A stretch of 64,000 nt of DNA from an uncultured Thermoleophilia bacterium (GCA_963705085.1 CAVPIV010000004.1:181028-245027); one strand, 5' to 3'. Numbered from the stretch's first letter, positions 17,190 through 38,242 are shown. The notes: a model not told the origin generated them from the sequence alone. A program made the numbers and translations.

Positions 17190-17252
17190 GAGTGTATCGG
17201 GTTTGCGGCGCGCCGGCAAGGGCCACGCGTCGCCGGGCGGATTGGAGGAGCG

Positions 17253-17993
17253 ATGAAGACGATCGATCATGTCACTCTGCGTCTGCGGAAGATGGGGGGC
17301 TGGGCGGCGCTGTACCTGGCCTGCGCGTACCTGCTGGCGATGCCGTTCTTCCTGGTGGTCGTCAACTACCCCAGCGTGACGGACCCCGCCGAGAAGGTCG
17401 CGCTGCTCGCGGCCAACCAGGGCAGCATCCACGCCATGTACCTCGTCACCTATGTGGTCTTCGGCGTTGCCCTCGCCGTCCTCGCGCTTGCGCTCTACGA
17501 GCGGCTGAAGCCCGCGGCGCCGGTCATGATGCAGGTGGCAACTGCCGTGGGTCTGATGTGGGCGTTCGTCCTGATCGCGAGCGGCATGGTCTTCAACGCC
17601 GGCATGGCCGCCGCGGTCGCCCTCTACCCGGCGAGCCCAGACCAGGCGGTAGCGACCTGGCAGGCGATCGAGCCGGTAGCGCAAGGACTCGGCGGCTCCG
17701 GCGGCGAGCTCCTCGGCGGTCTTTGGGTCCTGCTCGTCAGCATCGCCGGCCTCCGCGCGGCCCAGCTTTCCAGGCCGCTCAGCTGGCTGGGCGTGGCGAT
17801 CGGTCTCGTGGGCATCCTCTCGGTGATTCCGCCGCTGAAGGACGCGGCCTACGCCTTCGGGCTGCTGCAGATCGCGTGGTTCGCTGGGCTTGGGATCACC
17901 ATGCTCCGCGCCACGGAGCGGCGCGAGCCGCTGCCCGCACCCAGCCTCGAATCCGCGCAGGCTCAGCGCACGGTGGTCCAGCAAGCGCAGTAG
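17253..17993 (+). CDS. DUF4386-family membrane protein
   Basis: About six TM helices; GELLGGLWVLLVS and QIAWFAGLG; divergent from TetR. Confidence 0.7.
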   Translation: MKTIDHVTLRLRKMGGWAALYLACAYLLAMPFFLVVVNYPSVTDPAEKVALLAANQGSIHAMYLVTYVVFGVALAVLALALYERLKPAAPVMMQVATAVGLMWAFVLIASGMVFNAGMAAAVALYPASPDQAVATWQAIEPVAQGLGGSGGELLGGLWVLLVSIAGLRAAQLSRPLSWLGVAIGLVGILSVIPPLKDAAYAFGLLQIAWFAGLGITMLRATERREPLPAPSLESAQAQRTVVQQAQ

Positions 17994-18187: not shown

Positions 18188-20894
18188 ATGTCCACGCCGA
18201 TTCTCGCCACCAAGCTCGCGATCCCGCCGTCTCGGCCGAGCGTGGTGGTTCGCCCGAGGCTGATCGACCGGCTGGATGAGGGCGTGCGGGGCCGGCTGAC
18301 TCTTGTCTCTGCCCCGGCCGGCTTCGGGAAGACCACGATTATCAGCGAGTGGGCCGCCGGTCTAAGACGTGTTCAACCGGAGGTCCGTCCTGCCTGGCTT
18401 TCCCTCGACGAAGGGGACAGCGATCCGGCGCGTTTCCTGGCCTCCCTCGTCGCCGCTCTGCGGACGGTGGCGGCGGATGTTGGGGAAGGGGTGGTGGACA
18501 TGCTCCAGTCTCCCCAGCCGCCACCGATCGAAGCGCTGCTGACGGCTCTGCTCAACGAGATCGCGACGCTCTCGCACGATGTCGTCCTCGTCCTCGACGA
18601 CTACCATGTCGTCGACTCAGAGCCGGTGGACCAGGCTCTGGCGTTTCTGCTGGAGCATCTGCCGCCACAGATGCACCTGGTCATCGCCACGCGGGAGGAT
18701 CCACATCTGCCTCTGGCCAGGTGGCGCGCTCGGGGCCAGCTGACCGAGTTGCGTGCGGCCGACCTGCGGTTCACCCCCGCCGAGGCCGCCGAGTTCCTCA
18801 GCCGGGTGATGAGCCTCGACCTCTCGGCGAACGACATCATCGCCCTCGAGGCCCGCACCGAAGGGTGGATCGCCGGACTGCAAGTGGCGGCGCTCTCCCT
18901 TCGGGGGCGATCAGACGCGGCCAGCTTCATTCAAGGCTTCACCGGCAGCCACCGTTTCGTGCTGGACTACCTGGTCGAGGAGGTGCTCGAGCGACAGCCG
19001 GCACGCACGCGGAGCTTCCTGCTGCAGACCGCCATGCTCGACAAGTTGTGCGGCTCTCTGTGCGATGCCGTCACCGGGCAAGAGCACAGCAAAGGGATGC
19101 TCGAGCGCTTGGAGCGCGACAACCTGTTCGTTGTTCCGCTCGATGATGGGCGTCAGTGGTATCGCTATCACCACCTCTTCGCCGATGTTCTGCAAGCGTA
19201 CTTACTCGAGGAGCAGCCTGATCAGCTGCCCGCTCTGCACCGGAGGGCGAGCGAGTGGTACGAGGAGAACGGTTCGCGACCGGACGCGATCCGTCACGCT
19301 TTGTGCGCCATGGACTTCGGGTGGGCGGCAGACCTGATCGAGTTGGCGTGGCCTCTGGTGGAGGAGAGCGGCTCCCAGACCGCCACGTGGCTCAACTGGG
19401 CGGGGGCGCTGCCGGACGAGCTGATCCGCGCCCGGCCTGTGCTCAGCGTTTCGTATGCCTACGCATTGTTGGGTAGAGGTGAGATCGAGGCTGCCGAGGC
19501 CCGGCTGACGGACGCCGAGCGCTGGCTTAAGACGCCCGACGAGGCGGACGGACAGTCAGCGTCCCAGGCGGTCGTCGTGGACGAAGAACAGCTTCGGTCC
19601 CTGCTGGCGACCATAGCTGTGGCCCGTGCCTACTATGCCCATTCTCTCGGTGATGTGCCCGGTACCGTGATGCACGCTCAGCGGGTACTCGAGCTCTTGC
19701 CCGAAGGAGAGCGTCTCAGGCGCGGACAGGCGACCGCGCTCATGGGGATGACGTACTGGGCAAGCGGCGACCTGGAAGCCGCCGACCGGGTTTTCGTCGA
19801 CTACAGCATGAGACTGCTCGCCGCCGGCAACATCCCCGACGCGATCAGCGCCGCATCTGTTCTGCCTGAGGTCAGGCCGGCGCTGGGTCGTCTTCGTGAT
19901 GCTTCGGACGCACTCATGCGGCTGCTGCAGGTCGTGGTGGACCAGGGCGAGCCTCTGCCTCCGGACACGGCCGATCTATATCGAGGGCTGGGTGAACTGG
20001 ACCTTGAACGGGGCGACCTGGCTGCTGCGACGGAACACCTGCTGAGAAGCAAGGAGATTGGCGAGCAAGGGGAGTTGCCGGTATGGAGGTGGCGCTGGTG
20101 TGTCGCCCAGGCTCGGCTCAACGAGGCGGAGGGCGACCTGGAGGGCGCTCTCAGCCTGCTGGACGAGGCTCAGCGCCTGTTCATCAGGACGCCCTTGCCG
20201 GACGTGCGCCCCATTCTAGCTCGGAAGGCGCGGATTCGGGCTGCCCAGGGCAGGGTGGCCGAAGCACTGCAGTGGGCGCACGCACGGGGCCTGTCCGTCG
20301 ACGACGATCTCAGCTACCTGCACGAGTTCGAACACCTCACGCTTGCGAGGGTGCTCATCGCCCGGTATGAGAGCGAGCGGGCGGCCGGCGCGGTTCACGA
20401 CGCCGTGCGACTGCTCGAGCGTCTCCTGCACGCGGCGGAAGCAGGCGGCAGGGGAGGAAGCGTGATCCAGATCCTGGCGTTGCTGGCGCGCGCTCACCAG
20501 GCGCAAGGCAACACAGCCGCGGCCCTTGCGCCGCTGGAGCGCGCCCTTCCCCTGGCCGAGGCGGAGGGCTACGTCCGGGTCTTTGTAGATGAGGGTCCGC
20601 CGATGGCCCGCCTTCTGCAGCTCGCCGCCTCCCGCGCCACGGCGCCGGACAGCGCGAGGCGGTTGTTGGCGGCCTTCCCGTCGGCCAGCGTCGAGCTCAT
20701 GAGCTGAACGCGAGCTCGGAGTGCTCCGGCTCGTCGCTGAGGGGCTCACAAACCAGGAGATCGCCGCCCGGCTGTATCTCTCGCCGTTCACGGTCAAGGC
20801 CCACACCCGCAGCATCTACACCAAGCTTGATGCCCACAGCCGGACGCAGGCTGTTGCCAAGGCGAGGGAACTGGGAGTCCTACCCCAGCACTGA
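18188..20894 (+). CDS. MalT-like STAND ATPase / TPR / LuxR regulator, +1 frameshift at ~20705 before the HTH
   Basis: LATKLAIP, SAPAGFGKTT, VLVLDDYH, TEGWIAGLQ and WYRYHHLF; LuxR HTH (ERELGVLRLVAEGLTNQEIAARLYLSPFTVKAH) follows an extra T that creates TGA. Confidence 0.88.
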
Positions 20895-20946
20895 TCTCGC
20901 GTCCCTTCGAGCTTCCGCACCCAGCCGCGGCCCGCGGCGAGTCTGC

Positions 20947-21030
20947 GATTAGTCCGCCGCGCGCGGGGCCCTGACGTGCCGCGCGGCGCTCAATAGGCCT
21001 ACGCCGATTAGTCCCACCGAATAGTCCGTT
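20947..21030 (+). promoter_or_regulatory. Repeated boxes (G/C)AWTAGKCC upstream of the small gene
   Basis: GATTAGTCC 20947, CAATAGGCC 20991, GATTAGTCC 21006 and GAATAGTCC 21019. Confidence 0.5.
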
Positions 21031-21113
21031 CGGACGATGACGGCGCCTCCGTTCGCCCCCATGCTTGTCGAGTAGGCGCCGCAGGCGTCTCAGGCGGACG
21101 GTGGAAGGGCAAC

Positions 21114-21350
21114 GTGGGCAGCTACCAGATCAGGATCGAGGGCCATCTTGGACCAGGGTGGGCCAACTGGTTTGAGGGGATGCGGATCACCCTGGAGGAC
21201 AACGGCGACACGCTCCTGACCGGCGCGGTAGTCGACCAGGCCGCGCTCCACGGGCTCCTGAAAAAGGTGCGCGATCTCGGCGTGCCGCTCGTCTCCGTCA
21301 CTCGCCTTGACCCCGGCCCGGCGCACCAACCGACGAACAAAGGAGATTGA
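21114..21350 (+). CDS. Conserved 78-aa protein associated with MalT-like regulators
   Basis: YQIRIEGHLG.W.WFEG...GDTLLTG.VVDQAALHGLL..VRDLGVPLVSV; paralog at 35133-35388. Confidence 0.8.
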   Translation: MGSYQIRIEGHLGPGWANWFEGMRITLEDNGDTLLTGAVVDQAALHGLLKKVRDLGVPLVSVTRLDPGPAHQPTNKGD

Positions 21351-21351
21351 G

Positions 21352-22077
21352 ATGTTCTCGTACAGAAGAACCGCGATCATCGTGGGTGTGCTGTTCATCA
21401 TCGGAGACATCGCAGGCGTGCTGAGCTACGTCGTGACAGGAGGTCTGCTGGATGGCCCGGATGCCCTTACCAAGATCGCCGCAAGCCAGAACCAACTCGT
21501 GCTGGGAGCGCTCCTCGTGCTGGTCATGGGCCTCGCGCTGGCGATGGTCCCGGTCGTGATGTTCCCGGTCTTCAAGAAGTACAACGAAGTCCTGGCGCTT
21601 GGATGTGTCGTCTTCAGGGGCGCGCTCGAGACCGTCGGCTACATGGCGTCTGCAGGCACGTGGCTGCTGCTCGTCGAGCTCAGCCGGGAGCATGCGGAGG
21701 CGGCGTCTGCCGGCGCTCCGCACTTCCAGACCCTCAGCGCGCTCCTCGCGGGTCCGACTGCCGCGTACCTCATCTCCATCGCCTTCAGCCTCGGCTCCCT
21801 GATGTTCTACTACCTCTTCTACCAGTCGAGACTCATCCCCCGATGGCTGTCGGTCTGGGGTCTTGCCGGCGCCGTCCTGTACCTGGCTGCACCGTTGCTG
21901 CAGATGTTCGGCCACGGTTTCGGGATCCTGATGGCGCCCCTGGCGGTGGCGGAGATCGTCCTGGCGGTATGGCTGATCGCCAAAGGGTTCAATCGGTCGG
22001 CACTGGCTGCCGGCGCCGGGAGCCAGGCGTCCGCCCGGCGCTGGCCGGAAGTCGCCTCAGCGGGTATCACGAGGTAG
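21352..22077 (+). CDS. DUF4386-family membrane protein
   Basis: RRTAIIVGVLF, YQSRLIPRWLSVWG and EIVLAVWLIAKGFN. Confidence 0.85.
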   Translation: MFSYRRTAIIVGVLFIIGDIAGVLSYVVTGGLLDGPDALTKIAASQNQLVLGALLVLVMGLALAMVPVVMFPVFKKYNEVLALGCVVFRGALETVGYMASAGTWLLLVELSREHAEAASAGAPHFQTLSALLAGPTAAYLISIAFSLGSLMFYYLFYQSRLIPRWLSVWGLAGAVLYLAAPLLQMFGHGFGILMAPLAVAEIVLAVWLIAKGFNRSALAAGAGSQASARRWPEVASAGITR

Positions 22078-22171
22078 TTGCTTCACGATCGACCAAGCGG
22101 TGTTCGCGCGAGTGCGCGAAGGCAAGATCTGTGTGCCTGCCGGCTGACATCCGCCGAGACCGCGGCGCATG

Positions 22172-22870
22172 TCAGCCCCCGAGTCCGTCCCTCGCGACGA
22201 TCGAGGACGGACTCAGCAGGCGCTGAAGGCCGTCGAGGATCAGGCCGAGGCCGAAGCCGAACGCGGCGGCGTCGTCCCAGGGCGCCGCCGCATACGCCGT
22301 CGCCACGCGCGCCAGGGCCGGGTAGGCCCCCTCAGGGATGGCGTCGAGGACGTCTTGCGCCTCTGCGGAGTTGTCCGCATCGTCACCCAACGTGAGGATG
22401 GACCGCTGGCGCTCGAAGCCGTAGATGTAGCTGTCGAGCACGAAGAACGCGTGTGCGGCGACTCCCGGGGAGAAGCCCGCCCGGAGCAGGGTGCCGAGGA
22501 CTCGATCCGCGTAGGACAGGCCGCTGGGACCGCTCCGCTCTCGGGAGTCGATGAGCCCGGCGGCCCATGGATGCCGCGCGAAGACCTCCCGTGCAGAAAC
22601 CGCCCGGAGCCGCATCGCTTCCTTCCAGTCGACGCCCTCGGAGGGGAGGTCGATCTCGGCTACGACGAGATCGGCCATGCCGACCAGCACGTCGTCCTTG
22701 CCGGCCACATGGTTGTAGAGTGACGCGGCCTCGACGCCGAGCCTTCGCGCGAGCTCGCGCATGGTGAGCGACTCGATGCCGCTCTCATCCGCGAGATCCA
22801 TGGCCGCACGCACCACGCGTGGCCGATTGAGTGTGTCGCGCGCGCCGCTTCTGCCTGCCGGAGCGTTCGT
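22172..22870 (-). CDS. TetR regulator (paralog of 16422-17090); apparent start codon is ACG
   Basis: LTMRELARRLGVEAASLYNHV and FGFGLGLILDGL; RBS AAGGAGG is followed by in-frame ACG at 22870. Confidence 0.8.
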   Translation of the reverse strand, partial: TNAPAGRSGARDTLNRPRVVRAAMDLADESGIESLTMRELARRLGVEAASLYNHVAGKDDVLVGMADLVVAEIDLPSEGVDWKEAMRLRAVSAREVFARHPWAAGLIDSRERSGPSGLSYADRVLGTLLRAGFSPGVAAHAFFVLDSYIYGFERQRSILTLGDDADNSAEAQDVLDAIPEGAYPALARVATAYAAAPWDDAAAFGFGLGLILDGLQRLLSPSSIVARDGLGG

Positions 22871-22918
22871 GGCGCCTCCTTGCCGCTGCCCTCGCTGTGG
22901 ACTGAACTACGATGCTCC

Positions 22919-22975
22919 TTGACATACTAACAGTGTTAGCCTACGCTGGGCAAGTCGTAAACTAACAGCGTTAGT
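22919..22975. promoter_or_regulatory. Promoter with two TetR operators CTAAC-N3-GTTAG
   Basis: TTGACA (22919-24), CTAACAGTGTTAG (22927-39) and ACTAACAGCGTTAGT (22961-75). Confidence 0.8.
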
Positions 22976-22997
22976 AACGGAGAGGAAGGGAGTACGC

Positions 22998-23423
22998 ATG
23001 GCTGCCATGGGCACCGAGACGAGGGCGCGCCTGTCGTGGATGTGGGTCTTCGTGATGCTGAACATGATCTACGCGGACATCCTCAGCTTCATGTACCCGG
23101 GGTACTTGCAGCAGATCCTGGAAGGACACGCCGAGCAGATCACGATCACTCCGGAGTTCTTGCTCGCCGCCGCGATCGCGACTGAGATCCCGATCGCGAT
23201 GGTGGTGCTCACCCAGGTGCTGCCGCAGCGTGTGGCTCGCTGGGCGAACGTGGCCGCCGGCGCGCTGACGATTGTCTACGTCATCGTCGGAAGGTCCGAG
23301 GCTCCCCACTACATCTTCATCATGGCTCTGGAGACGCTCGCCTGCATCGCCATTGTCTGGTCGGCATGGACATGGCGCGGAGCCGACGCGCGAGTACCGG
23401 CCCGCGATCTGGTAGCGGAGTAG
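22998..23423 (+). CDS. DUF6326-family membrane protein
   Basis: LSWMWVFVMLNMIYADILSFM and EIPIAMVVL. Confidence 0.75.
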   Translation: MAAMGTETRARLSWMWVFVMLNMIYADILSFMYPGYLQQILEGHAEQITITPEFLLAAAIATEIPIAMVVLTQVLPQRVARWANVAAGALTIVYVIVGRSEAPHYIFIMALETLACIAIVWSAWTWRGADARVPARDLVAE

Positions 23424-23654
23424 GCGCCGCGGCGCACCCGGCGGCTTCTGCGGCAACCCACGGGCATCGGCGGTCGTCCTGCACCGGCCGTGACTGTCTG
23501 TGCCGCGTGCGCGCCCGCGACGTCGCGGGCGCGCACGCGTAGGCAACCCTTGGGAGTCCGCCCACACACCTCGTGCCGGCGCTCGGTGGGGCTTTGCGGG
23601 GCGCGAGGCGCAGAGGACCCCGATTGACTCCCTCCGCTCGCCGTCTCGTCGCTA

Positions 23655-23718
23655 AGTAAAAGGTTCTTGACATCGTGTCGGCTTTGCTTTACTCTTGGCA
23701 TGTCAAACATACCTGACA
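23655..23718. promoter_or_regulatory. Putative XRE-regulator boxes and promoter
   Basis: GTAAA-N7-TGACA, TGTCG-N8-TTACT and TGTCA-N8-TGACA in an AT-richer patch containing TTGACA. Confidence 0.4.
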
Positions 23719-23734
23719 CCAAGGGGTGGTCGCC

Positions 23735-24184
23735 ATGCCGTTCGAAGAGAAGCTCACGTGGGTCAATCTGGTGGTCACGGCGCTGGTCGCGGGCGTGTAC
23801 TTCGTGCTCATGCTCGGCCAGGTGGTGGACGTGCCCGCGGCGGAGGTCGCCTACCAGAAGCCGATGCTCATCGCCGTCGGCGTCTCGGTACTGCTGACGA
23901 TTGTCGGCTCGATCCTGATGGGGATCGGGACGGGCATCTCGATGGAGCTGTCGGGCCGCTCCGCCGACGACATGGACCGCAAGGACGAGCGCGACAAGGA
24001 CATCAGCCGGCGCGGCGACGTCGCCGGGTTCTACATCGTCTCAGCGGGCGCGCTCGCGGTGATGGCGCTCACGATGCTCGAGTACGACTACTTCTGGATC
24101 GCCAACGCGCTGTACCTGTCCTTCGTCGTCGCCACCCTCGTCTCGGGGGCCGTGAAGCTCGTCGCCTATCGCAGGGGCTTCTAG
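23735..24184 (+). CDS. Membrane protein co-transcribed with XRE regulator
   Basis: Four TM segments; DRKDERDKDISRRG motif. Confidence 0.65.
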   Translation: MPFEEKLTWVNLVVTALVAGVYFVLMLGQVVDVPAAEVAYQKPMLIAVGVSVLLTIVGSILMGIGTGISMELSGRSADDMDRKDERDKDISRRGDVAGFYIVSAGALAVMALTMLEYDYFWIANALYLSFVVATLVSGAVKLVAYRRGF

Positions 24185-24186
24185 CC

Positions 24187-24414
24187 ATGGTCAAGCCGAC
24201 GAACGTGGCAAACAGCATCCGCGCGCTCAGGTTCGCGGCCGGCGAGATGACGCAGGCCGAACTCGCGGATCGGGTCGGCGTCACCCGGCAGACCATCATC
24301 GCCATTGAGCAGGGCCGCTACTCGCCGACGCTCGAGATGGCCTTCAAGATCGCGCGCGTATTCGGCGTGGGACTCGACGAGGTGTTCCAGTACCCGGAGG
24401 AGGAGCAATCATGA
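24187..24414 (+). CDS. XRE-family helix-turn-helix regulator
   Basis: MTQAELADRVGVTRQTIIAIEQGRYSPTLEMAFKIARVF. Confidence 0.92.
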   Translation: MVKPTNVANSIRALRFAAGEMTQAELADRVGVTRQTIIAIEQGRYSPTLEMAFKIARVFGVGLDEVFQYPEEEQS

Positions 24415-25235
24415 AGACGACAACCGCTCGAGCTGATCGCGGCCCGGCCGCGCAACCAACAGTCCTGATCCTCGGCGGCACTGGGCGCACCGGACGGCTC
24501 GTCGTAGAGCAGCTTCTGGGTCGCGGCGCCACCGTGCGCGCGATCGTGCGGTCGGCAGACCGGCTTCCGTCCGGGTGTGCCGACGACGCGAACCTGCAGG
24601 TCATCGAGGCCGACATCCTGTCGCTGAGCGACGACGAGCTCCGGCGCCACCTGCGCGGCTGTGACGCGGTCGTCTCGTGCCTCGGTCACCCGAACAACCT
24701 GAAGGGCGTTTTCGGGCCGCCGTACGACCTGGTGACGCCGGTAGCGCGGCGGCTGCACGCGGCGGCGCAGGCGCTCCACCCGGAGAGGCCGGTGAAGTTC
24801 GTGCTGATGAGCAGCGTCTCTGTCAATCACCCCGGCGGACTCGACCCTCGCCGTGGTCCGCTCGAGGGCGCCACGCTGGGGTTCCTGCGCGCGCTCGTGC
24901 CGCCGGCCCAGGACAACCAGCGCGCCGCGGACTTCCTCTGCCGCGAGGTCGGCGCCGCCTGCGGCGAGATGGAGTGGGTCGCCGTCCGGCCGGACTCATT
25001 GCTCGACGGCGACGTAGCCCAGATCACGCCGGGGTACGCCCTCCATAGGACCCTCGTCACCAGCCTGTTCAGACCAAACAGCACGAGCAGGGCCAATGTG
25101 GCGCGCTTCATGTGCGACCTGGCCTGCGACGCGCAGGCGTGGCAGCAGTGGAAGGGCGAGCTGCCCGTCATTGTCAACGACCGGGCGGCGTGCAGTCTCG
25201 GGAGCGGCGCGGCGGCCCGTCGTCGCGCCGCATAG
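24411..25235 (+). CDS. NAD(P)H-binding atypical SDR (NAD_binding_10-like)
   Basis: LILGGTGRTG Rossmann motif, DAVVSCLGH and WVAVRPDSL. Confidence 0.85.
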   Translation: MKTTTARADRGPAAQPTVLILGGTGRTGRLVVEQLLGRGATVRAIVRSADRLPSGCADDANLQVIEADILSLSDDELRRHLRGCDAVVSCLGHPNNLKGVFGPPYDLVTPVARRLHAAAQALHPERPVKFVLMSSVSVNHPGGLDPRRGPLEGATLGFLRALVPPAQDNQRAADFLCREVGAACGEMEWVAVRPDSLLDGDVAQITPGYALHRTLVTSLFRPNSTSRANVARFMCDLACDAQAWQQWKGELPVIVNDRAACSLGSGAAARRRAA

Positions 25236-25396
25236 CCTGTTCCCGCCGCACGGATCATCTGCAGCCACGGCGGGCCTGGCGTGAGATCCGCACGCCAGGC
25301 CCGCCGCCGAATTGCGTTTCGTCCGCCAGAACGACCGTGTTGACCGTCTAGCGCACGTTCCTGCTCTGAGTGGTCGCGCCGATCTTGCTCCCGGTC

Positions 25397-28300
25397 CTAG
25401 TTGCCTTTGATGATCCGGCAGGTGAAGTCGTAGGTTGCCGGGACGGAGTAGCTGGTCAGGTGCTCCATTCTGACCAAATACGTAGCCTGGGCTGTACCGA
25501 GCGGAACGGTGTAGTCGATGAGCCGATTCCGGTCTGGCCAGTCGGTCTCGTCGATCCAGGCGCCGTCTGCCTGGCGCAGCTCGAGCTGGGCGTAGTACAT
25601 GTTCGCGCCCCCGCTAAGCGCCATGATGATCCTGTCGCCTGGATCCAGCACGATGGTGAAGAGATCGGCAAGGTCCCCCGAGGCCAGAGTACCGGCGATG
25701 CGTGAGGACGGGAGGGTTTTGCCGGGCATGTCGGCCGGAACGTCGGTCGTCTCCGTCCACGACCCCTGAGTGGTGACGCGCTCCCATTCACTGGCCGCTC
25801 CGACGAAGGTGGAGCTCGCATCCGGGATGTACTCGGCGCGGAACTGGTACGAGCCTGGGCCGAGCACTCCGCCGTACCACGCCTCTCCTCTTCCCAGCCC
25901 CTGATCAGTCGTCACAAAGCTGAACGGCGAGGTCGCGGTCGCCGTGACGGCTCGCTCGGCGACCACCCAGCTGTGACCGTCCGGCATGAAGCCGGTCACC
26001 CGAATCGTGCCGGTGGGCACTACGCCGGCCGGCGCGTTCCACGTCATCGTGATCGTTGCGTGTACCCACGGGCCTGGCACGGTCGCGTCGACACCGCTGG
26101 AAAGCGTCGTGGTGATCACGAGTGGGAGAGAGGCGCTGGGCACCCACCCCGCATAGAGCGTGAGGGGCTGCGTCGCCATGGTGCCGAAGGTGTAGGGACT
26201 GGTAAGACCCTCATCGCTGTACCAGCCGGTGAAGACGTGGTCTGCCCACCTGACACGCGCGCCCTCGATGGCTGTCCCATGGGGAACCATGCTGACGATG
26301 TCCGCGTCTCCGTTCTGCGGTTTGAAGGTGAGCTTGTAGCTGTTGCGGGCGTAGTGGTACTCGACGACGGTGCTGCCGTCCTCCGCGATTGTCACGGTCT
26401 GCGGTTCGGGGCTTGCGAAGCCGGCGTAGGTGTTCACGGCCGGCGTGACGCTGGCTCCGGGCGCGGCGCGCAGCGTTTGCGTGGCGATCAGGTCGTAGGC
26501 TGAGCCATCCACCGTTTGCCGGTAGTGTCTGACACGGTAGAGGGGGTTCACGGTCCACTTGGCATAGAGCTGCAGGTCCGCGGCGGGCATCGTCGTCCCC
26601 GCGTAGGGCTGCCCGCTGAACGACTCACTGTCGTACCAGCCGGCGAAGGTGTGGTTGGTCCACGTGACGGCTGGAGCGTCGATGGCCGCCCCGTACGCGA
26701 CGGTGCTGACGACGTCCTCGTCTCCGTTCTGCGGCTTGAAGGTCAGCTTGTAGCTGTTGCGGGCGTAGTAGTACTCGACGAGGGTGCTGCCGTCGCCCGC
26801 GATCGTCACGGTCTGCGGCGCCGGACTCGTGAAGCCGGCGTAGCTGTTCACGGCCGGTGTTACGCTGGCTCCGGGCGTGCCGGCGAACGTCTGGATGGCG
26901 CCAAGGTCGTAGGCGGAGCCGTCTACGGTCTGCCGGTAGTGCTTGACCCGGTACTCAGGCGTCGCCGTCCACTTGGCATAGAGATGTACGTTCGCGGCCG
27001 GCATGGTGGTCGCGGCGTTGGGGTCGCCAGCGCACGCCTCGTTGTCGTACCAGCCGCCGAAGACCCAGCCCGTGTTCACGACCGCGGGGGCCGCCATGTC
27101 GCCTTCGTACAGAACGGTCTTGACGATAGCCGGATCTCCGTTCTGCGGCGAGAAGGTGAGCTGGTAACTGGTGCGTGCGTAGTAGTAGTCCACGACGGTG
27201 CTGCCGTCGCCCTTGATCGACATCGTGCGCGTCTGCGGCGCCGTGAAGCCCGTGTAGCTCTTCACCTCCGGCGTGACCTGCATGTCGGTCGTGCCGCTGC
27301 CCGGCTGGGTTTCCAGCAAGAGCGGATCATCGCCGTACGAGCCGGTCAGCGACTGCCTGTAGTGCCTGACGGTGTAGGCGGTGTTCGTGGTGGCCGTCCA
27401 CTTCGCGTACAGCTGGACGTTCCTCGCCGGCATGCTCGTCGCCGTGTAGGCGGCGCCGGTGTACTCGGCGTTCTCGTACCAGCCGCCGAAGCTGTAGCCG
27501 GCACGGGTCGGCGCGGGCAGCGTAACGCTGCTCGCGTACGCGCCGACGATGGGACTGACCAGACTCCCGTTCACGCTGTTGAAGCTGATCATGTAGCTGT
27601 CCGCCAGGTTGTCCCAGACGACATGATAGGTGCGGGAGGGGGCGACGGAGGTGAACGCGAGATTCCCGCCAAGCCACTTGACCGTCATGGTCCCTTCGGT
27701 GATCTCCTGGCCCACCGGCTTCTGGACGGTGATGACGCCGTTCGACTGCGTGAAGTTGCTGTTGCTGAACGTGATGTCGAACCTGCCGCTGCCGTACGTG
27801 TACGGCACGACGCTGATGTCGCCCTTCGTCAAGTCCATCTGCTTCATGCTGAAGACCGTGGAGGGCAACGTGTAGGTCGTCGTGTTTCCCTTCAAGTGAA
27901 TGTCGTCCGTGGCATCGGTGAGGACATAGGAGAAGTTGAAGATGTTCATTCTGTTCCCGGTATCCCACAGCGGGAACTCGTGGTTGTACAGCGTCGGGTT
28001 GAATTCGTACTTTCCCTTGGATGCTTGTGCGTAGAATCGCAAGTGCAGGTAGATGCCGATCTCCGTGTAGAGAGAGCCAGATGTTGTCGAGGTCGTCTGT
28101 GCGTTCTCGTGGAGCAAGTGGTAGTAGAAGTAGCCCCACAATCGAACGTATGGGCCGGTCTCGATGTCGATGCCGACACTGGCCATGTCGACGGTGAACA
28201 GGCCGAACTCAATGCGGAAGATGAGACCCGCTCGCACGCCCAAGGTTCCCATGACCCAGAACTCGACCTCGTACCTCTCGTCGACGAGCTCGATCTGGTC

Positions 28301-31006: not shown

Positions 31007-31637
31007 ACCTCCGAGTCAAGAAACATGATTGACGATCACGATCAACAGCAGAATGTGGCGCTTCCTTGCACCGTCTCCAGACCCCCTCTTCCGCGCGTTC
31101 GCTGCACGCCAACGCGGCTCGCCATGTCGTGGGGAAGAAAGGAAGAAGGAGCGATCAGAGCACCGTTGGCGGTTGACTCTGCCGCTCCGCCTGCAGCTGG
31201 CTTTGTCGTTACCTAGACGACGGCGTCTGGATCCACCAGGTGACTCTCGCTCCAGCTGCTAATGCAGGCCTCCCGACCCATGGCGAAAACCGCGTCCCCA
31301 TCATGTATCGGCATTGCATCAGCCGACGTTGAGTACTCAGAGCGTCGGCGGCGCGCCGCCGGCGTGCGGCTCAGCGCGGTGATGGACGGCGGGCGCACTA
31401 CCATGTTGCGCGCGGGCGAGCGGCGGTGCAGCCGCTGCCCGTGCCGCGTGGTCAAGCCCGCGTAAGGTCCTTCGGCCTGCGGCTCACTGCGCGAGCCCGG
31501 GGGGTGTTGCTCGCTTGTGACGGCCGCCAGCCGTGGAGCTGTCCAGCATGTCCTGGCAGCCTGACGGCGAGACCGGCCAGCGGCCGGGTCTCGCCGATTG
31601 GTTTCTTCGCACTCAGGCGAATCGCCTGTGGACGGCT

Positions 31638-31769
31638 GCGTCGGCTGTTGGAGAAGGAGTGCTGGGCATGCTCCAGTCTCCCCGGCCGCCGTCGATCGAA
31701 TCGATGCTGACGGCCCTGCTCAACGAGATCGCAGCTCTCCCGCACGGTGTCGTCCTCGTGCTCGACGAC
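31638..31769 (+). pseudogene. Sliver of a third MalT-like regulator gene
   Basis: AVGEGVLGMLQSPRPPSIESMLTALLNEIAALPHGVVLVLDD aligns gap-free to 18470-18601, about 86% nt identity (manual). Confidence 0.88.
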
Positions 31770-31895
31770 AAGGGGCCGACCTGCCGCGAGGACGCAGGTC
31801 GCCCCTCCGGCGTCGCCGCGGTGCGGGATCGCCGACCGGTCGGACACACCGCCGGACGGCGACCTCGCTGCGGGCGAAAGGCTCAGACGTCGGCT

Positions 31896-32849
31896 TCAGG
31901 CGTCGGCCGCGTTCACCGTCACCGCCACGTTGCCGCGCTTGTGGCCGAGCTCGACGTAGCGGTGAGCGTCGATGATCTGCTCGAGGGGGTAGCACCTGTC
32001 GGTGATCGGCGTGATCGCTCGCGCCTCGACGAGTTCTCTCACCCTGTCGAGGCGCGCGGAGCTCAGGACGAGGGCGCCGTCGTCGATCGACACGTACGCG
32101 CCGCCGGCGGTCAGCGCTCGCTTGCACGCCTCCTTGAGCGCGGATGTCCTGCGCTTGCCGACCGCGTCCAGCACGACGTCGTACCGTCCCAGCTCGAGCA
32201 GCGAACGCTCGTCGGTGTAGTCCAGGGTCCTGTCTGCTCCCAGCGCGGTCACGAACTGAACGTTTCTCGCGCCGCACACGCCGGTCACTTCCGCCCCGAG
32301 GTGCTTCGCGTACTGCACGGCGAACGTCCCTGAGGTACTGGACGCTCCATAGACGAGCACCTTGTGGTTCGGTCTGACGCCGACCCTGTCGAGGTACTGC
32401 AGCGCCAGCAGGCCGCCGTACGCGGCCGCGGTCGCTGCCTCATGGCTCACGTTGCCCGGTTTGAGCGCGAGGCAGCCGCGCTTTGAGTCGTCTTCCTTCA
32501 TGCACGTGAAGTCCGCGTAGGCGCCGAGCGAGACGCCGGTGAGACCGAAGACCCGGTCGCCGACCTTGAAGCGCCGGATCCCGGCGCCCGCCTGGACGAC
32601 TTCTCCCGAGAGCACCTCGCCGATGATCTCGTTCCGCGGGCGCGTGATGCCGATCAGCAGGCGCATCGGGATGAGGAACCGCAGCGGGATGTCGGAGCCT
32701 CGGATGAAGATGTCGCTGTTCGTCACGGAAGTGGCGCAGACCCTGATCAGGACTTCGTCATCGGCCGGCACGGGCCGTGGGCGCTCCACGATCTTCAGCA
32801 CGTCGGCCGGGCCGTATCTGGTACACACGATGGCCTTCATCGACTCCAT
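31896..32849 (-). CDS. NAD(P)-dependent MDR-family oxidoreductase (Zn-independent, quinone reductase-like)
   Basis: MKAIVCTRYGPADVL, VLVYGASSTSGTFAVQYAK and RYVELGHKRGNVAV. Confidence 0.88.
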   Translation of the reverse strand: MESMKAIVCTRYGPADVLKIVERPRPVPADDEVLIRVCATSVTNSDIFIRGSDIPLRFLIPMRLLIGITRPRNEIIGEVLSGEVVQAGAGIRRFKVGDRVFGLTGVSLGAYADFTCMKEDDSKRGCLALKPGNVSHEAATAAAYGGLLALQYLDRVGVRPNHKVLVYGASSTSGTFAVQYAKHLGAEVTGVCGARNVQFVTALGADRTLDYTDERSLLELGRYDVVLDAVGKRRTSALKEACKRALTAGGAYVSIDDGALVLSSARLDRVRELVEARAITPITDRCYPLEQIIDAHRYVELGHKRGNVAVTVNAADA

Positions 32850-32876
32850 GGATACTCCTTCGTCGTGGGATGCCGG

Positions 32877-33641
32877 CTAGTTCGCGAGGCTCGGGTCCGT
32901 CAGGCGGGGTGGTGCCGAGGCGGGGACCCTCACGCCCCTGATGAGGAGCCACAGTGCCAGCCCCACTTCGGCCATAAGGCTCACGGCGATCCCGGGAGTG
33001 GTGATCTCCGGGTGGGCCGGGAGCAGCAGCGCTTGTGAGAACCAGACGAGGACGGCGACGCCGTCGGCGATGAGGAGGACGCCCAGGGTGCGGGGAAGGA
33101 TTCCCGACCTGTAGACCAGGTAACCGAGCGGGAACAGCCACGTGCCGAAGAACAGCTGCGCCGTGACGAAGCCCACCTTGTACACGCCGGCGGACAGGAG
33201 CCCCAGTCCCTCAAGTTGGGCCGCTGAGAAGGCCTGCATGTGGCTGCCCGCGTCGGCCATCAGCAGCGCGGCGAGCAGCGGCAGCATGCTCGCGCACTGA
33301 ATGGCGACGCCGACGGTGTTGAGCAGCAGGAAGAGCAACGCTAGCTCTTTGCCGACCGGTCGCAGAAGGATGTAGAGACCCCAGGCGGTCACAAGAAAGA
33401 GGAACGCCGAGATCAGCCCGACGACCAAGGCCAGACGGAAGGACGCGGGGTCTGTGACGACCGACTGGTAGACCTGCTGCGCTTCACCGAGCCCAACGTG
33501 CCCCAGCCTGTCCGCAAACACGGACGCCAGGATGAAGCCGAGGTAGCAGCCTCCCGTGATCCTGGCCACCTTGCTCTGCGCCGCTGTCGGCGCCTTCATG
33601 CCCGGATTGCCGGTCGTGGTGGTGGTTCCCTCCGCGTTCAT
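32877..33641 (-). CDS. DUF4386-family membrane protein
   Basis: ARITGGCYL, AQLFFGTWLFPLGYLVYRSGILPR and AEVGLALWLLIRGV. Confidence 0.85.
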   Translation of the reverse strand: MNAEGTTTTTGNPGMKAPTAAQSKVARITGGCYLGFILASVFADRLGHVGLGEAQQVYQSVVTDPASFRLALVVGLISAFLFLVTAWGLYILLRPVGKELALLFLLLNTVGVAIQCASMLPLLAALLMADAGSHMQAFSAAQLEGLGLLSAGVYKVGFVTAQLFFGTWLFPLGYLVYRSGILPRTLGVLLIADGVAVLVWFSQALLLPAHPEITTPGIAVSLMAEVGLALWLLIRGVRVPASAPPRLTDPSLAN

Positions 33642-33691
33642 GACGTGCTCCCTCTTCCGTGATGTTTGAGACGTGCAGACAAATCCCGGCG

Positions 33692-34231
33692 TCACGCCTG
33701 GAGCACGTCGGATCCGTACAGCCTCTTGTGGAGATAGCCGATGGCTATGCCAAGAGCGAGGAACCGTGGGACGTTCAGAGCCGTGCCGATGAAGAAGGCA
33801 CGCGCGGAATCACGCTCTATGCCAATCGCTGCGAGCCGAACCATGACGATGGCGGCGCCAAAAGCGACGCAGCTCAGCATCATCGACTTCAGGACCGGAT
33901 CACTCATTGGCAGCTTGGTGAAGAAGCGAAGCAGGACACCGCTGATGATGAATGAGAGGGCGATGCCGCCCACCAACGGTCCGACGAGAACGCCTTCGCC
34001 GTAAGAGATCGAGAACAGACTCCTGAATTCCGCGGCGATGGGCAGCAGGGAAAACGCGATGGTGGTTGCCCAGAATGCCAATCCTCCGCCTGCGGTCAGC
34101 ACGCAGATCTTCTTGACAGTGCCATGTGACGTCATTGTGGTCTGGTGTTTGTCTGCAGCCTGGCATTCCGGCGCCGTCGACCTGCTCTGGCCGATGGGAT
34201 TCGGGATCGTGGTGCTGTTGGTCGTGTCCAT
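33692..34231 (-). CDS. Hypothetical membrane protein
   Basis: Four hydrophobic segments, lower GC, RBS present. Confidence 0.5.
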   Translation of the reverse strand: MDTTNSTTIPNPIGQSRSTAPECQAADKHQTTMTSHGTVKKICVLTAGGGLAFWATTIAFSLLPIAAEFRSLFSISYGEGVLVGPLVGGIALSFIISGVLLRFFTKLPMSDPVLKSMMLSCVAFGAAIVMVRLAAIGIERDSARAFFIGTALNVPRFLALGIAIGYLHKRLYGSDVLQA

Positions 34232-34336
34232 GCGTCACTCCTGGTTCGGATCGGGTGGGCCGGTCGCATGGAGGGGGATCCGATCGATCGGGCGAAACGA
34301 CGGTGCCAGATTGCGGATCCGCCTCGGCAGACCGTG

Positions 34337-35110
34337 CTAGGCGGCCTGGCCGGTCACTGATGCGGCGAGCAACTTCATGCCGTCTCCCTCCGACGTGATG
34401 GTTTGGCCGGACGCCCGCGTGGCCGGATTGAACCCCTTGGCGATCAGCCACACCCCCAGGGCGATCTCCTGCACGAAGATGAGGGAGTTCGCGACGAGGT
34501 TGACCGGCGTGAGGCCGAGGTGCTGGGTGAAGCCGGAGTAGACCGTCGCGCCGAGACACAGCGCGGCTCCAACGAGACCCCAGCCCGACAGCCAGCGAGG
34601 AACGAGTCTTGCCTTGTACAGGAGGCAGTAGTACATGAACGCGCCGGCAAGCCACGCCAACGACATGACGTAGCCGTGGGTCCAATCCCGGGCCGCCAGC
34701 AGACTCGAACCCACGGCTTCGAACGACGACGCGTCGCCAGGTGCCCCGGCGACGGATTGCCGGCTCACGCTGAGGAGCGTCAGCAGGCCGATCATGCCGA
34801 CAAGGACCAGTGCGCCCTCGACGGTTCTGGCCGCCACGGATCCGAGGGCCACGCCCCGATTGTGCTTCCGCAAGACCGGATACAGCCCAATGGCGATGCC
34901 CGCGGCGGTGATGGCCCACACGAACTCGACGAGCGCTCCCGCGACCACCCGGTCGTCATGCGCGGCCAGAATGGTGAGGTAGTTCGGGGCGTCGAGCAGC
35001 CGCGCCGTGACGACCGCGCTCAGGATGCTCGTGGCCGTGCAGAGGATGAAGAGCAGGCCCACGACCACGGCGGTCCTTCTGTGGGGGGAATATGTAGGGT
35101 TTGCGAGCAT
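34337..35110 (-). CDS. DUF4386-family membrane protein
   Basis: RRTAVVVGLLF, YKARLVPRWLSGWG and EIALGVWLIAKGFN; closest to 21352-22077. Confidence 0.85.
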   Translation of the reverse strand: MLANPTYSPHRRTAVVVGLLFILCTATSILSAVVTARLLDAPNYLTILAAHDDRVVAGALVEFVWAITAAGIAIGLYPVLRKHNRGVALGSVAARTVEGALVLVGMIGLLTLLSVSRQSVAGAPGDASSFEAVGSSLLAARDWTHGYVMSLAWLAGAFMYYCLLYKARLVPRWLSGWGLVGAALCLGATVYSGFTQHLGLTPVNLVANSLIFVQEIALGVWLIAKGFNPATRASGQTITSEGDGMKLLAASVTGQAA

Positions 35111-35132
35111 CCCGTCCTCCGCTTCCTTCTGG

Positions 35133-35388
35133 TCAGGGTGTCGTGCCGGGCCCGACCGGATTGACTGAGATCAGGGGAACGCCGAGGTCGCGCACCCTCC
35201 TCAGGAGTCCGTGCAGCGCGGCCTGGTCGACGACCGGTCCGGTCAGGAGGGTGTCGCCGTTCTCTTCCGGCGTGACGGTCGAGTCCGGGGAACCAATCTG
35301 CCCAGGTGCGATCGAGCTGGCCCTTGATCCTGATCTCGTAGATCAGCGGTAGCTCTTGATCAGCTGCGGGATCAGGTCTGTTCGGCAT
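35133..35388 (-). pseudogene. Paralog of the 78-aa protein, +1 frameshift near 35280
   Basis: IYEIRIKGQLDRTWADWFPGL, then in the next frame TVTPEENGDTLLTGPVVDQAALHGLLRRVRDLGVPLISV. Confidence 0.85.
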
Positions 35389-35480
35389 CGGCCTGTGTCC
35401 GTTCTCGCGGGTGATGACGGTGCATGCCATCTGCTCGGTGTACGGACAGTCTGGGCGCGCCGACGCGTCGCCGGTAGACA

Positions 35481-35517
35481 CTTCGGTGTGAGCCGGAGTG
35501 TTGTTCTGAGTGTTGTT
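35481..35517 (-). promoter_or_regulatory. Tandem boxes upstream of the second small gene
   Basis: Minus strand AACAACACTC twice, 12 bp apart, then CACACCGAAGTGTC. Confidence 0.45.
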
Positions 35518-35569
35518 TCTGGGTGGTGAGGGGAGGGCCGGGAGGCCGGCGGGGCGTGGGAGCCGGCGT

Positions 35570-38242
35570 CTACAGCAAGCCCAGTTCCCTGGCACGGGCG
35601 ACGGCCTCGGTGCGCCGCTGCACGTTCAGCTTCTCGAAGATGCGGCGGTTGTGGCCCTTGACGGTGTCCAGGGCCAGGAAGAGCTGTCTGCCGATCTCCT
35701 GATTCGAAAGGCCCTGGGCGATCAGCCGCAGGACTTCGAGCTCGCGCGGGCTGAGCGGTTCGGCCGGCGAGGAGGGACGGGGAGCGGGGGATGCCGGAGC
35801 GGAGGATCCCGGTCTTTCGCCGCGCGCATCCAGCTCAAGGCGGCCATGAGCCTGCCTACGTAGTCCGGTCTGATGCCCTGCGCGGCCGCCGCGGACAGGA
35901 GGTCCGCCATCGGCGCTCCCTCGTCTACGAAGAGACGGACGAAGCCGCCCGGCTCGGCCAGCGCCAGCGCTTCGCCCAACGAGCGTGCCGCTGCGTCCTC
36001 TTCAGCCCCGCCCTCTTCCCCGAGCGCGTGCTGGGCGACGGCCTGCAGGATCAGCGTCCTCAGCCGCTCGTCCGCCCAGCCCTGGGCCTCCAGGCGCTGG
36101 CCCAAGGGTCCCAGCACCGCCAGCGCCGCGCCCGGGTCGCCCTGGGCGATAAGCACGCGAGCCTGGCTGAGCGGGAGGTCGTACTGCCCGGCCAGTCGGG
36201 CGGCAGCGGTCACCTGGCCCTGCCGTAGCAGCGTCAGAACCTGGGCGGCGGCGATCTCCGGCAGGCGCAGCACAAAGGCGTTGTCGTGCGCGGATCGTTG
36301 CGCCTCCGCCAGCATCGCCGCCGCGCTCTCCACATCGCCTCGGGCCAGCGTCACCCGTGCCAGGAAGATGTCGCTGGCGATGGACCGGTCGATCCCGCGA
36401 TCGTAGAGGCCCGCCAGGCGCCGGCTCTGCTGCGCGTGCTGTTCGGCGCCGTCGAGGTCGTCCCACTCGTAGCAGATCCGCGCCAGGCTGAGGTGCACTT
36501 CCTCGACGTTCGGCAGCGGGTGCTCGCCGGCGAGCTCCAGCACTCGTCGGTAGCTCTCGGCCGCCTGGTGGAGCTGGTTGTCCAACTCCTGCAGGTTGCC
36601 CTGGACCTCACGCCGCCAGCATCCTCGAGAACACGTGCCCGGATCTCTCGGCGAGCTCGACGCATTCCCGGCAGATGAGAGCGGCGGCGGCACGATCGCC
36701 CCTGAGAACGTGCGCCATGGTCGCCGCCCAAGCGGCGGTGAAACGGAACGGCAGATTCTCGGGGCGCAGGTACTCCTGCGCACGACGTGCCTGCGCGGCC
36801 ATCGTCTCGACGTCGTAGCGGGTGAGCGCCAGCGTGGCCCGGGCGCAGGCTATCTGTCCGATCAGGTCGCGGGTCGCCTCGTCGAGCTCGACGCCCTGCA
36901 GCGCGCGCTCGGCCCCTTGCAGCTTCTCTTCGACGCCCGTCGTTTGCGCGGCCATCAGGGTCAGTGTGGCGGAGCGCACCAGCAGCCGGGGCCGTGCCTC
37001 GAGCACCGTTCGTGGAAGGGAGGCCAGCCAGTCGCGGATGGGCGTCAACACCCTGCGGAGATGCAGGTCCATGCCGTCGCTGTCGATGAGACGCTCGGCG
37101 CGCTCGACGTCGTTGGCGAGCGTCGCGTGCCGAAAAGCCTCGAGGAGCTGGCCATCGGTTTCGTACCATTCACTGGCCCGGAGGTGCAGGTCGGCGATCT
37201 CCTCTGCCGAGCGACTCTGCCCCAGCCGTTGTCGCAGCAGGTCGTCGAACAGATGGTGGTAGCGGTACCAGCGCCGTTCGTCGTCGAGGGGGACGATGAA
37301 CAGGTTGGCGCGCTCGATGGCCTGCAGGGTTCCATCGCCGGAGCCGGCAGGGGCGCGCAGGAGCGCGTCACACAGCGGGCCGCACAGGCGGTCGAGGATG
37401 GACGTGTGCAGCAAGAACGCCTGGACCTCGTCGGGCTGTCGCTGCAGGACCTCCTCGAGCAGGTAGTCCAGCACGAAGCGGTGGCTCCCGGTGAAGGAGC
37501 GGATGAAGTCGGCGGCATCCGGGAGTCCCTGGAGAGAGATGGCCGCCATCTGCAGACCGGCGATCCAGCCTTCGGTGCGGGCTTCCAGCGCCTCGATGGC
37601 GTCTGCCGAGAGGTCGAGGCCCGTCGCCCGTTTGAGGAACTCGGTGGCCTCGGCGGGTGTGAATCGCAGGTCGACGGCGCGCAGCTCGGTCAATTGACCT
37701 CGGGCGCGCAGCCGGGCCAGGGGCAGACGTGGATCCTCCCGGGTGGCGATGACCAGGTGCGTCCGCGGCGGCAGGTGATCGAGCAGAAACGTGAGGGCCT
37801 CGTCATCCGGCCTGGAGTCGAGCACGTGGTAGTCGTCCAGGACGAGAACGACCTCGTCGGAGACGGCGCTGAGCTCATTGACGATGGTCGTCAGGATCGA
37901 CTCGAGTGGCGGAGGCTGTGGTGATTGGAGGGCAACCAGCACCCCGCTGCCGATACCCGGCGCGACCGTCCGCAGCGCGGCGACGAGGTAGGCCAGGAAG
38001 CTCGAGGGGTCGTCGTCCCTCTCGTCCAGCGACAGCCAGGCGACCGGTCGCCCACATCCGGCGGCCCATTCGGCGACCAGCGTGGTCTTGCCGAAGCCCG
38101 CGGGGGCGGAGACGAGGGTCAGCGGACCGCGTGTGCCCTCGGTGAGCCGCGCCATCAGGCGGGGTCGGGCGACGATGTCGGGCCGGGACGGAGGGACGTA
38201 CAGCTTCGTCAAGAGAAGTGGGGCAGGCGCTCTGCTGGTCAC
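35570..38242 (-). pseudogene. Second MalT-like STAND/LuxR regulator, frameshifts near 36612 and 35790-35830
   Basis: LLTKLYVP, SAPAGFGKTT, LVLDDYH and WYRYHHLF; the TPR part and LuxR HTH (PLSPRELEVLRLIAQGLSNQEI) lie in different frames. Confidence 0.85.

Follow-up and report, generated by a model that had tools for sequence, protein, structure and literature searches.

LAL-regulator cassettes that pair an undescribed small protein with orphan membrane cargo in an uncultured Thermoleophilia bacterium

What is the role of a protein of about 75 residues that is encoded between a large transcriptional regulator and a set of membrane proteins? The question is raised by a stretch of 64,000 nucleotides from an uncultured Thermoleophilia bacterium (GCA_963705085.1 CAVPIV010000004.1:181028-245027; this whole stretch is referred to as the window, with positions counted from its first letter). 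Two convergent cassettes were found in it, cassette A at 18188-22077 (+) and cassette B at 38242-31896 (-), each with a LAL/MalT-like STAND regulator, a ~75-aa protein and a DUF4386 membrane protein. LAL/MalT-type STAND regulators are abundant in soil bacteria, and to our knowledge a signal or partner is known for almost none of them. The regulator class itself is known; what is added here is a probable operon under LAL control in which orphan membrane cargo is combined with an invariant small protein, not described before, as the proposed partner. Our reading, to which we assign a probability of roughly 0.55, is that the cassettes are inducible operons, each switched on by a LAL activator of its own, with the small protein as invariant partner and with cargo of membrane and redox proteins.

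The recurrence of the cassette was investigated in a scan of one genome per species, which yielded at least 560 confirmed loci. The best 79 were used, giving 82 loci together with those from contigs; they are the closest relatives of the window small protein, with identities of 64-81% in the 79 genome loci and of up to 92% in the contig loci. Neighbours were called with phmmer in all stop-to-stop open reading frames (ORFs) of the loci, with the window proteins as seeds. A LAL gene on the same strand ended at most 1.5 kb upstream of the small gene in 88 of the 96 cases with enough upstream sequence. The first gene downstream of the small gene encoded DUF4386 in 53 cases, an oxidoreductase of the medium-chain dehydrogenase/reductase (MDR) superfamily in 20 and DUF6326 in 16, together 89 of 97, and there was one small gene per regulator, whatever the cargo. 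The same gene order was kept in nearly all of the 82 independent loci, which is beyond chance. The sequence-only reading had proposed a dedicated module and suggested a neighbourhood analysis of the small gene; the small gene proved consistently linked to MalT-like and DUF4386 genes elsewhere, so that this check did not refute the proposal and showed the module to be recurrent.

The hosts of the best 79 loci were mainly metagenome-assembled genomes (MAGs) of Chloroflexota and Actinomycetota; also among them were Papillibacter cinnamivorans DSM 12816 (locus L046) and one MAG each of Bacillales, Bryobacteraceae and Ectothiorhodospiraceae. Three contigs with close homologs showed the same components by precomputed Pfam labels; on one of these contigs, an intact regulator of 890 aa precedes an NmrA-like gene, the small gene, DUF6326 and an MDR gene, in this order. 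The order of cassette B (small gene, DUF4386, DUF4386, m179, MDR) was observed again in about ten loci. Tandem cassettes, two or three per locus, occurred in L021, L045, L050 and L055, with up to three within one 20-kb locus. Additional recurrent cargo comprised CPBP/Rce1-like proteins, DUF2938, DUF333 and a divergent DUF4386; these families were taken from the smaller clusters of a single-linkage clustering of downstream ORFs, the rest having been merged by overlapping stop-to-stop ORFs.

In the spacer between the regulator and the small gene, a common grammar was observed: a pair of direct-repeat boxes with a period of 12-13 nt, one copy in inverted orientation, and a further copy just ahead of a -10-like element. 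Exact 7-mer direct repeats with a spacing of 9-16 nt were present in 45 of 108 upstream regions, compared with 9.4 in shuffles, and 40 of these 45 spacers showed a period of 12-13 nt. The candidate operator of cassette A (20947-21027, +) consists of repeat boxes and a palindrome: GAWTAGTCC boxes lie at 20947, 21006 and 21019, the last two with a 13-nt period, and are followed by the palindrome GTCCGttCGGAC. The GAWTAGTCC motif matched three times in 64 kb, with 0.28 matches expected, and boxes of this type were also found upstream of the small gene in six other loci (L001, L002, L005, L006, L012 and L020). In the candidate operator of cassette B (35476-35517, -), a direct repeat with an inverted element, AACAACACT occurs twice at 35517-35497 (-) with a 12-nt period and is accompanied by the inverted element AAGTGTCT. 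Two matches of AACAACACT were obtained in 64 kb against 0.07 expected, and the cassette-B box grammar recurred in at least 36 other loci. In the window, box matches were obtained nowhere but in the intergenic region of each cassette, between its regulator and its small gene.

The recognition helices of the upstream regulators were extracted by phmmer and set beside the boxes. AACAAYAC boxes were paired with the helix TVKGHNRRIF, TAGTCC boxes with TVKAHARSIY and TCCCCAC boxes with VRTHTKSIY, while TCACCAC, TCATCAC and TCAACAC boxes stood with RTHTKNIF, RTHTQNIY and RTHTNNIY, respectively. An apparent recognition code is seen in the spacers of L007-L082 and the window operators: helices of the form RTHT-K/Q/N-N stand beside boxes of the form TCA-C/T/A-CAC, TVKGHNR beside AACAAYAC and TVKAHARS beside TAGTCC. 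This co-variation is the strongest evidence obtained for binding of the regulator at the spacer. As the box sequence co-varies with the recognition helix of the helix-turn-helix (HTH) domain, and as boxes lie only there in the window, the sequences indicate that the regulator very probably controls the promoter ahead of the small gene, in agreement with what had been proposed for the adjacent promoter. Since the boxes differ between the paralogous cassettes and track the helix residues, each regulator appears to read its own boxes, so that orthogonal cassettes can share one genome.

The G+C content of the window is 62-75%, and reading frames were picked by third-position G+C and then checked with Pfam. 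Regulator A (18188-20894, +) matched AAA_16, TPR_MalT (1e-62) and GerE (3e-19). Regulator B (35570-38242, -) is spread over three frames, which were mapped with tblastn, and matched TPR_MalT (6.6e-55) and GerE (1e-20). A P-loop nucleotide-binding oligomerisation domain (NOD) is present in both (AAA_16 and NACHT matches), with legible Walker A (GFGKTT) and Walker B (VLVLDDYH) motifs, and the TPR_MalT matches confirmed a MalT-like sensor superhelix in both. The GerE HTH domains are out of frame in the window assembly and in frame in all 42 short-read relatives. By their domains, with the HTH read in its own frame, both proteins fit LAL/MalT-type STAND regulators. The best NCBIfam match of the regulator was MalT (NF003420) with 359.6 bits, below the equivalog cutoff of 537, and the regulators are therefore not MalT orthologs.

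Small protein A (21114-21350, +) has 78 aa and a GTG start after GGAAGG; small protein B (35133-35388, -) is frameshifted and was read from a three-frame translation. The core GDTLLTGxVVDQAALHGLLxxVRDLGVPL, first noticed in the sequence-only reading, was read in both. A single-sequence search returned at least 8000 homologous clusters at 90% identity, all of them unnamed or hypothetical and none with a Pfam domain, and a profile search of 50%-identity representatives returned 12,088 proteins at E<=1e-3 and 5,290 at 1e-10. No Pfam match was obtained for 17 members of the family even at E<=1, the ACT and PII models included, nor did the small protein match entries of NCBIfam, PDB (by sequence) or PADLOC. 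Pairwise identity, averaged over 105 genomic copies, was 0.79 for the first, 0.92 for the second and 0.58 for the third codon position, a pattern which points to selection on a protein and not on a nucleic-acid element; on this sequence evidence, the small gene encodes a genuine protein on which purifying selection acts. The small protein is also the most conserved component of the cassette. The two small proteins of the window are 68% identical, against 54% for the N-terminal and 31% for the C-terminal (sensor) part of the regulators and 41% for DUF4386. An AlphaFold2 (AF2) model of small protein A was compact, with a predicted local distance difference test score (pLDDT) of 78, and, set against the beta-alpha-beta-beta-alpha-beta order of ACT and ferredoxin-like regulatory domains, it had four strands and one long helix, the first helix being reduced to a vestige of 3 residues; the predicted fold is ferredoxin-like, beta-beta-beta-alpha-beta.

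By these identities, cassettes A and B are ancient paralogs and did not arise by recent duplication. The same module had been described as present twice in inverted orientation, with an oxidoreductase in each copy, and as duplicated. Pfam matches bear out the regulator and DUF4386 in both copies, and the small ORF is likewise present in both, with the oxidoreductase found in cassette B only, cassette A stopping at a convergent TetR gene; two paralogous copies do exist, and the word "duplicated" overstates their closeness, the copies being old.

The cargo of cassette A is a DUF4386 membrane protein (21352-22077, +; Pfam 4e-38, 131.9 bits against a gathering score of 27.6), which starts 1 nt after the stop of the small gene. 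Its AF2 model had a pLDDT of 83 and about six long helices. In cassette B, the small gene is followed by DUF4386 B1 (34337-35110, -; 2e-41, 142.5 bits) and by m179 (33692-34231, -), a 179-aa polytopic membrane protein that matched neither Pfam nor NCBIfam and was observed at the same position in 12 loci. Then come the divergent DUF4386 B2 (32877-33695, -; 3e-33, 116.1 bits), which is ~28% identical to DUF4386 A and B1, and a quinone-reductase-like NAD(P)H oxidoreductase of the MDR superfamily (31896-32849, -). The latter has a GroES-like ADH_N domain and the Rossmann domain ADH_zinc_N, with a further match to ADH_zinc_N_2. Its best NCBIfam match was the PIG3 quinone oxidoreductase subfamily, below the cutoff, and the GHE zinc motif, read by eye, is apparently replaced by IGEVLSGEV. 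The four DUF4386 genes counted earlier are accounted for by the three above and by a DUF4386-like gene at 17187-17993, which is borderline with 27.5 bits, just below the gathering score of 27.6. m179 and DUF6326 were considered for the fourth place and discarded at hhalign probabilities below 3%. That DUF4386 together with the MDR enzyme might export or detoxify a small molecule, as proposed in the sequence-only reading, is plausible.

Comparison of the loci shows that the regulator gene is followed by a spacer with boxes and that the first gene of the operon always encodes the highly constrained domain of ~65 residues. Variable cargo comes next: small polytopic membrane proteins (DUF4386, DUF6326, DUF2938, CPBP-like proteins and m179) and MDR oxidoreductases dependent on NAD(P)H. 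Under the preferred reading, each LAL would activate through its own boxes; in the manner of MalT, the promoter would be switched on when a ligand binds to the divergent TPR sensor and ATP drives oligomerisation. The small ferredoxin-like protein would act, as MalK, MalY and Aes do, as an invariant signalling partner that reports the status of cargo or ligand to the STAND protein, and might be attached to the membrane cargo at its cytoplasmic N-terminus; the cargo itself would handle a membrane-active or redox-active small molecule. Tuning of the STAND protein by the small protein had also been suggested in the sequence-only reading. Within this model, the role of the small protein as an invariant partner of the regulator, possibly held at the cargo, is a tentative part that rests on analogy and has, in our judgement, somewhat less than an even chance.

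Two sets of observations bear on the side to which the small protein belongs. Natural fusions, in which the small domain is N-terminal, tie it to the cargo: they were found with DUF4386 (four clusters at 50% identity), DUF6326 (three) and a double rhodanese (one), and three fusion clusters were found in two or three independent sources each. The fusion to the double rhodanese, a sulfurtransferase, was represented by P0266 (401 aa) and also by P0394 and P0395, from three independent sources; this cargo type is absent from the window. On the other side, the window contains DUF4386-like and DUF6326 genes which are controlled by TetR genes and are not accompanied by a small gene, and these tie the small protein to the regulator, as do the presence of one small gene for each regulator with any cargo and a conservation above that of every cargo family. 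The TetR-controlled genes lie in two divergent pairs recognised by Pfam, TetR (16422-17090, -) with the DUF4386-like gene (17187-17993, +) and TetR (22172-22816, -) with DUF6326 (22998-23423, +).

The strongest alternative takes the small protein to be a cargo-side, ACT/PII-like subunit that docks on the cytoplasmic face of membrane proteins or on enzymes and gates or stabilises them, without contacting the LAL regulator, which would merely switch the operon on. The recurrent fusions to the N-terminus of DUF4386, DUF6326 and rhodanese speak for it, as do the tight coupling to the gene that follows, which in cassette A is separated from the small gene by 1 nt, and the weak fold matches to ACT regulatory subunits such as IlvH/IlvN. 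However, the small protein precedes unrelated cargo, soluble MDR enzymes among them, and is far better conserved than any cargo, which is hard to square with specific docking; moreover, the TetR-controlled cargo genes of the window do without it. We regard this alternative as rather doubtful.

Several results weigh against the preferred reading of an inducible operon with the small protein as partner of the activator. A LAL::small fusion was not found among the top 150 representatives, all fusions seen being to cargo, an absence that also favours the cargo-side alternative. The linkage counts come from the closest relatives among thousands of small-protein clusters. Foldseek gave the small protein only weak matches to acylphosphatase, ACT and HMA domains (best E ~0.01; template modelling (TM) score 0.45-0.6), the ACT domains including the acetohydroxyacid synthase regulatory subunits IlvH/IlvN. 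The DUF4386 A model had no structural relative in the PDB (best E 0.38, TM <=0.3), so that the fold search suggested earlier for this family came back empty, and a literature search retrieved no paper mentioning DUF4386, DUF6326, PF14329 or PF19851. A sigma-70 consensus promoter was not detected, which fits an activator-dependent promoter and is no positive evidence for one. Finally, the frameshifts of the window cluster in the cassettes, while its other long genes are intact.

Neither fold model pointed to a function: the Foldseek matches of the small protein were generic for ferredoxin-like folds, and the DUF4386 model was good and had no match in the PDB. The ferredoxin- or ACT-like fold suggested for the small protein in the sequence-only reading is weakly compatible with the model (pLDDT 78) and with the Foldseek matches (TM ~0.5); by sequence, no ACT-family model was matched.

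A wider version of the preferred reading was also considered. According to this version, LAL sensory cassettes would form an unrecognised and massively expanded class in Chloroflexota and Actinomycetota, with the ~65-residue protein as their universal second subunit. As a partner in feedback or co-sensing, possibly tethered to the membrane, this protein would link STAND activation to the state of the membrane or redox cargo, and orthogonality would be provided by the helix/box code (HT-K/Q/N reading TCA-C/T/A-CAC). We consider it unlikely as a whole. If it were true, it would represent a new two-part STAND signalling mechanism and supply a ready set of orthogonal activator/operator pairs.

The frameshifts raise the question of whether the cassettes of the window are intact. 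In regulator A, the frame is shifted by a +1 insertion, a T at 20705, so that the HTH lies in another frame; this T is absent from L001, L002, L006 and L012. Regulator B has a +1 insertion at 36610, which is private with respect to the aligned relatives L001 and L002, and a second frame change at ~35808-35835, in the linker before the GerE HTH. Small gene B has a +1 insertion (G) at 35281, which is likewise absent from L001 and L002. Of 50 cassettes from long-read 'contig_N' assemblies, 31 had a fragmented regulator, as against 0 of 42 cassettes from assemblies of other kinds, and MDR genes were partial in 30 of 64 long-read cases and in 7 of 61 others. Regulator A of L001 aligned over its full length, with 87% identity and at least 17 private +1 insertions, and regulator B of L002 had ~20 private single-base insertions, with few or none in the adjoining MDR, DUF4386 and small genes. 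In the LAL genes, as in the genes beside them, substitutions were biased to third positions. The window frameshifts are likely to be consensus errors of long-read sequencing, and both cassettes are thus probably functional in the organism; the repaired regulator that had been called for is probably made necessary by an assembly artefact. Perhaps the errors cluster because fast-evolving paralogous genes confuse consensus building.

Alternatively, the cassettes could be decaying relics, in which the regulators and small gene B are pseudogenes and small protein A, DUF4386 A and the cargo of cassette B are still coding. Four frame changes in ~6 kb of cassette DNA, beside intact 1869-aa, 1785-aa and other long ORFs, would fit such decay. 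Past loss is documented by the remnant of a third LAL regulator at 31602-31769 (+), the sliver noticed earlier, which matches LAL residues ~78-135 (53% identity by tblastn; Walker B VLVLDD in the ORF translation), and deletions of 9.5 kb and 1.4 kb are found in this region of the relatives L001 and L002. Against this, regulator fragmentation is confined to long-read assemblies, with the partial MDR genes following the same trend, and the changes at 20705, 36610 and 35281 are private single-base insertions, of which L001 and L002 have their own sets. Insertions also contrast with the deletion bias expected of bacterial pseudogenes, and the substitution pattern still looks selected. Decay is therefore considered quite improbable.

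Private single-base insertions were common in many MFD 'contig_N' long-read loci and were concentrated in LAL genes. Elsewhere in the window, a 221-aa ABC ATPase ORF at 11178-12060 (-) overlaps a 129-aa ORF in another frame by ~170 nt, which might be a similar frameshift.

A biosynthetic locus for a ribosomally synthesised and post-translationally modified peptide (RiPP), or an anti-phage defence locus, with the small ORF as precursor peptide or effector, is barely credible: a STAND ATPase, a small ORF and membrane proteins do occur together here and LAL regulators are often found in biosynthetic clusters (PMC3282765), but defence was rejected on PADLOC, which had no match for seven proteins, and a RiPP precursor was rejected because the cassettes are without modifying enzymes and the small protein is folded (AF2), 65-90% identical across phyla and without a Cys-rich or hypervariable core, and the STAND protein moreover has a DNA-binding HTH with a cognate candidate operator.

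The 5' leader of cassette B (35396-35448, -), which spans ~55 nt between the -10-like box and the start codon, is conserved in sequence in class-1 loci. It has hairpin potential (TGTCCGT...ACGGACA) and nested stems TGTAC..GTACA and GTGGC..GCCAC, seen in the window (35448-35396) and in class-1 loci, such as upstream of L070:9860. In an alignment of 31 leaders, 82% of the cells were paired and covariation was not above that of shuffles. Folding z-scores were -0.9 (cassette B leader) and -1.7, and an Rfam search with the leader of cassette B and of class-1 loci gave no match. An RNA element in the leader is not claimed, as neither covariation nor folding energy exceeded the controls and no Rfam family was hit.

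The DNA between the cassettes contains the TetR/DUF6326 pair, a 152-aa membrane protein with an XRE-type HTH protein, an NAD_binding_10 protein and a 1869-aa ORF. At 23726-24414, the 152-aa membrane protein is directly followed by the 75-aa XRE-type HTH protein, and the NAD_binding_10 gene comes next at 24411-25235. The cassette of L006 is adjoined by the same genes for the 152-aa protein and NAD_binding_10, together with a TetR gene. Window segments 22405-31878 and 33738-35107 are missing in the close relatives L001 and L002. Both retain a 180-nt remnant of TetR (window 22225-22405), which indicates that the relatives carry deletions and that the window represents the fuller state. The 9.5-kb segment lost in them includes the 1869-aa ORF, which has a hydrophobic N-terminus and internal repeats. 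Divergent from regulator B, at 38459-40654, lies a gene for a secreted cysteine protease of the papain family, in which a lectin-like domain is combined with a long linker of Pro-Thr repeats. Three tRNA genes were found in tandem at 61598-61897.

The cassettes place a large unannotated family (~12,000 clusters at 50% identity) in a fixed position next to LAL regulators. If the small protein modulates the STAND protein, this would amount to a general regulatory principle comparable to the control of MalT by MalK, MalY and Aes; if it regulates the membrane cargo, it would give a first point of entry to orphan membrane families such as DUF4386, DUF6326, DUF2938 and their relatives. The co-variation of helix and box could yield orthogonal activator-promoter pairs, and the specificity rule is directly testable. 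The apparent pseudogenisation in long-read metagenome assemblies, which is probably artefactual, would mislead automated annotation.

Among known systems, AfsR of Streptomyces coelicolor is a STAND activator with a NOD and TPRs that binds direct repeats at the promoter of the adjacent small gene afsS, and the 'sigma-like' AfsS acts in regulation (PMC10936776, PMC2267785). The likeness lies in a STAND activator that turns on a neighbouring small gene through direct repeats. AfsR differs in that DNA is bound by an N-terminal SARP domain, whereas the window regulators have a C-terminal LuxR HTH, and in that it is controlled by phosphorylation. No cargo operon follows afsS, and a relation of AfsS to the small protein is not known, the sequences not having been compared. 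The actinobacterial LAL regulators SCO0877/SCO7173 and those of polyketide synthase clusters belong to the same family and come from a phylum related to that of the window host (PMC3282765). They are pathway-specific or pleiotropic regulators of secondary metabolism, and none has been described with a small protein or DUF4386 cargo; our literature search on LAL regulators returned work on Streptomyces secondary metabolism only.

ACT/PII-type proteins (IlvH/IlvN, GlnK and SbtB) may share with the small protein, by its weak Foldseek matches, a small fold of the beta-alpha-beta type. GlnK-AmtB and SbtB-SbtA are the cases for comparison where a small regulatory protein docks on a membrane protein, and in glnK-amtB, as here, a small gene is placed with, and sometimes fused to, a gene for a membrane protein. 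The small protein differs in having no Pfam match to ACT or PII and in its vestigial first helix. The TetR-controlled DUF4386-like and DUF6326 genes of the window belong to the same cargo families and presumably do the same physiological job; they are placed under a repressor encoded divergently, where the cassettes have a LAL activator, and are without a small gene.

The closest parallel is MalT of Escherichia coli, the founder of the LAL/STAND-LuxR regulators. The Walker A/B NOD, the TPR_MalT sensor and a C-terminal GerE/LuxR HTH, out of frame in the window assembly, are shared, and in both cases short repeat boxes in direct and inverted orientation, candidate boxes in the window, are arrayed ahead of a promoter in which no -35 element can be recognised. 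The box sequences of the window are, however, unrelated to the MalT box, and the cassettes carry DUF membrane proteins and an MDR reductase as cargo, whereas the mal regulon consists of maltodextrin genes and is without an invariant small first-gene product. The activity of MalT is set by the partner proteins MalK, MalY and Aes, and this control provides the template for the role proposed here for the small protein.

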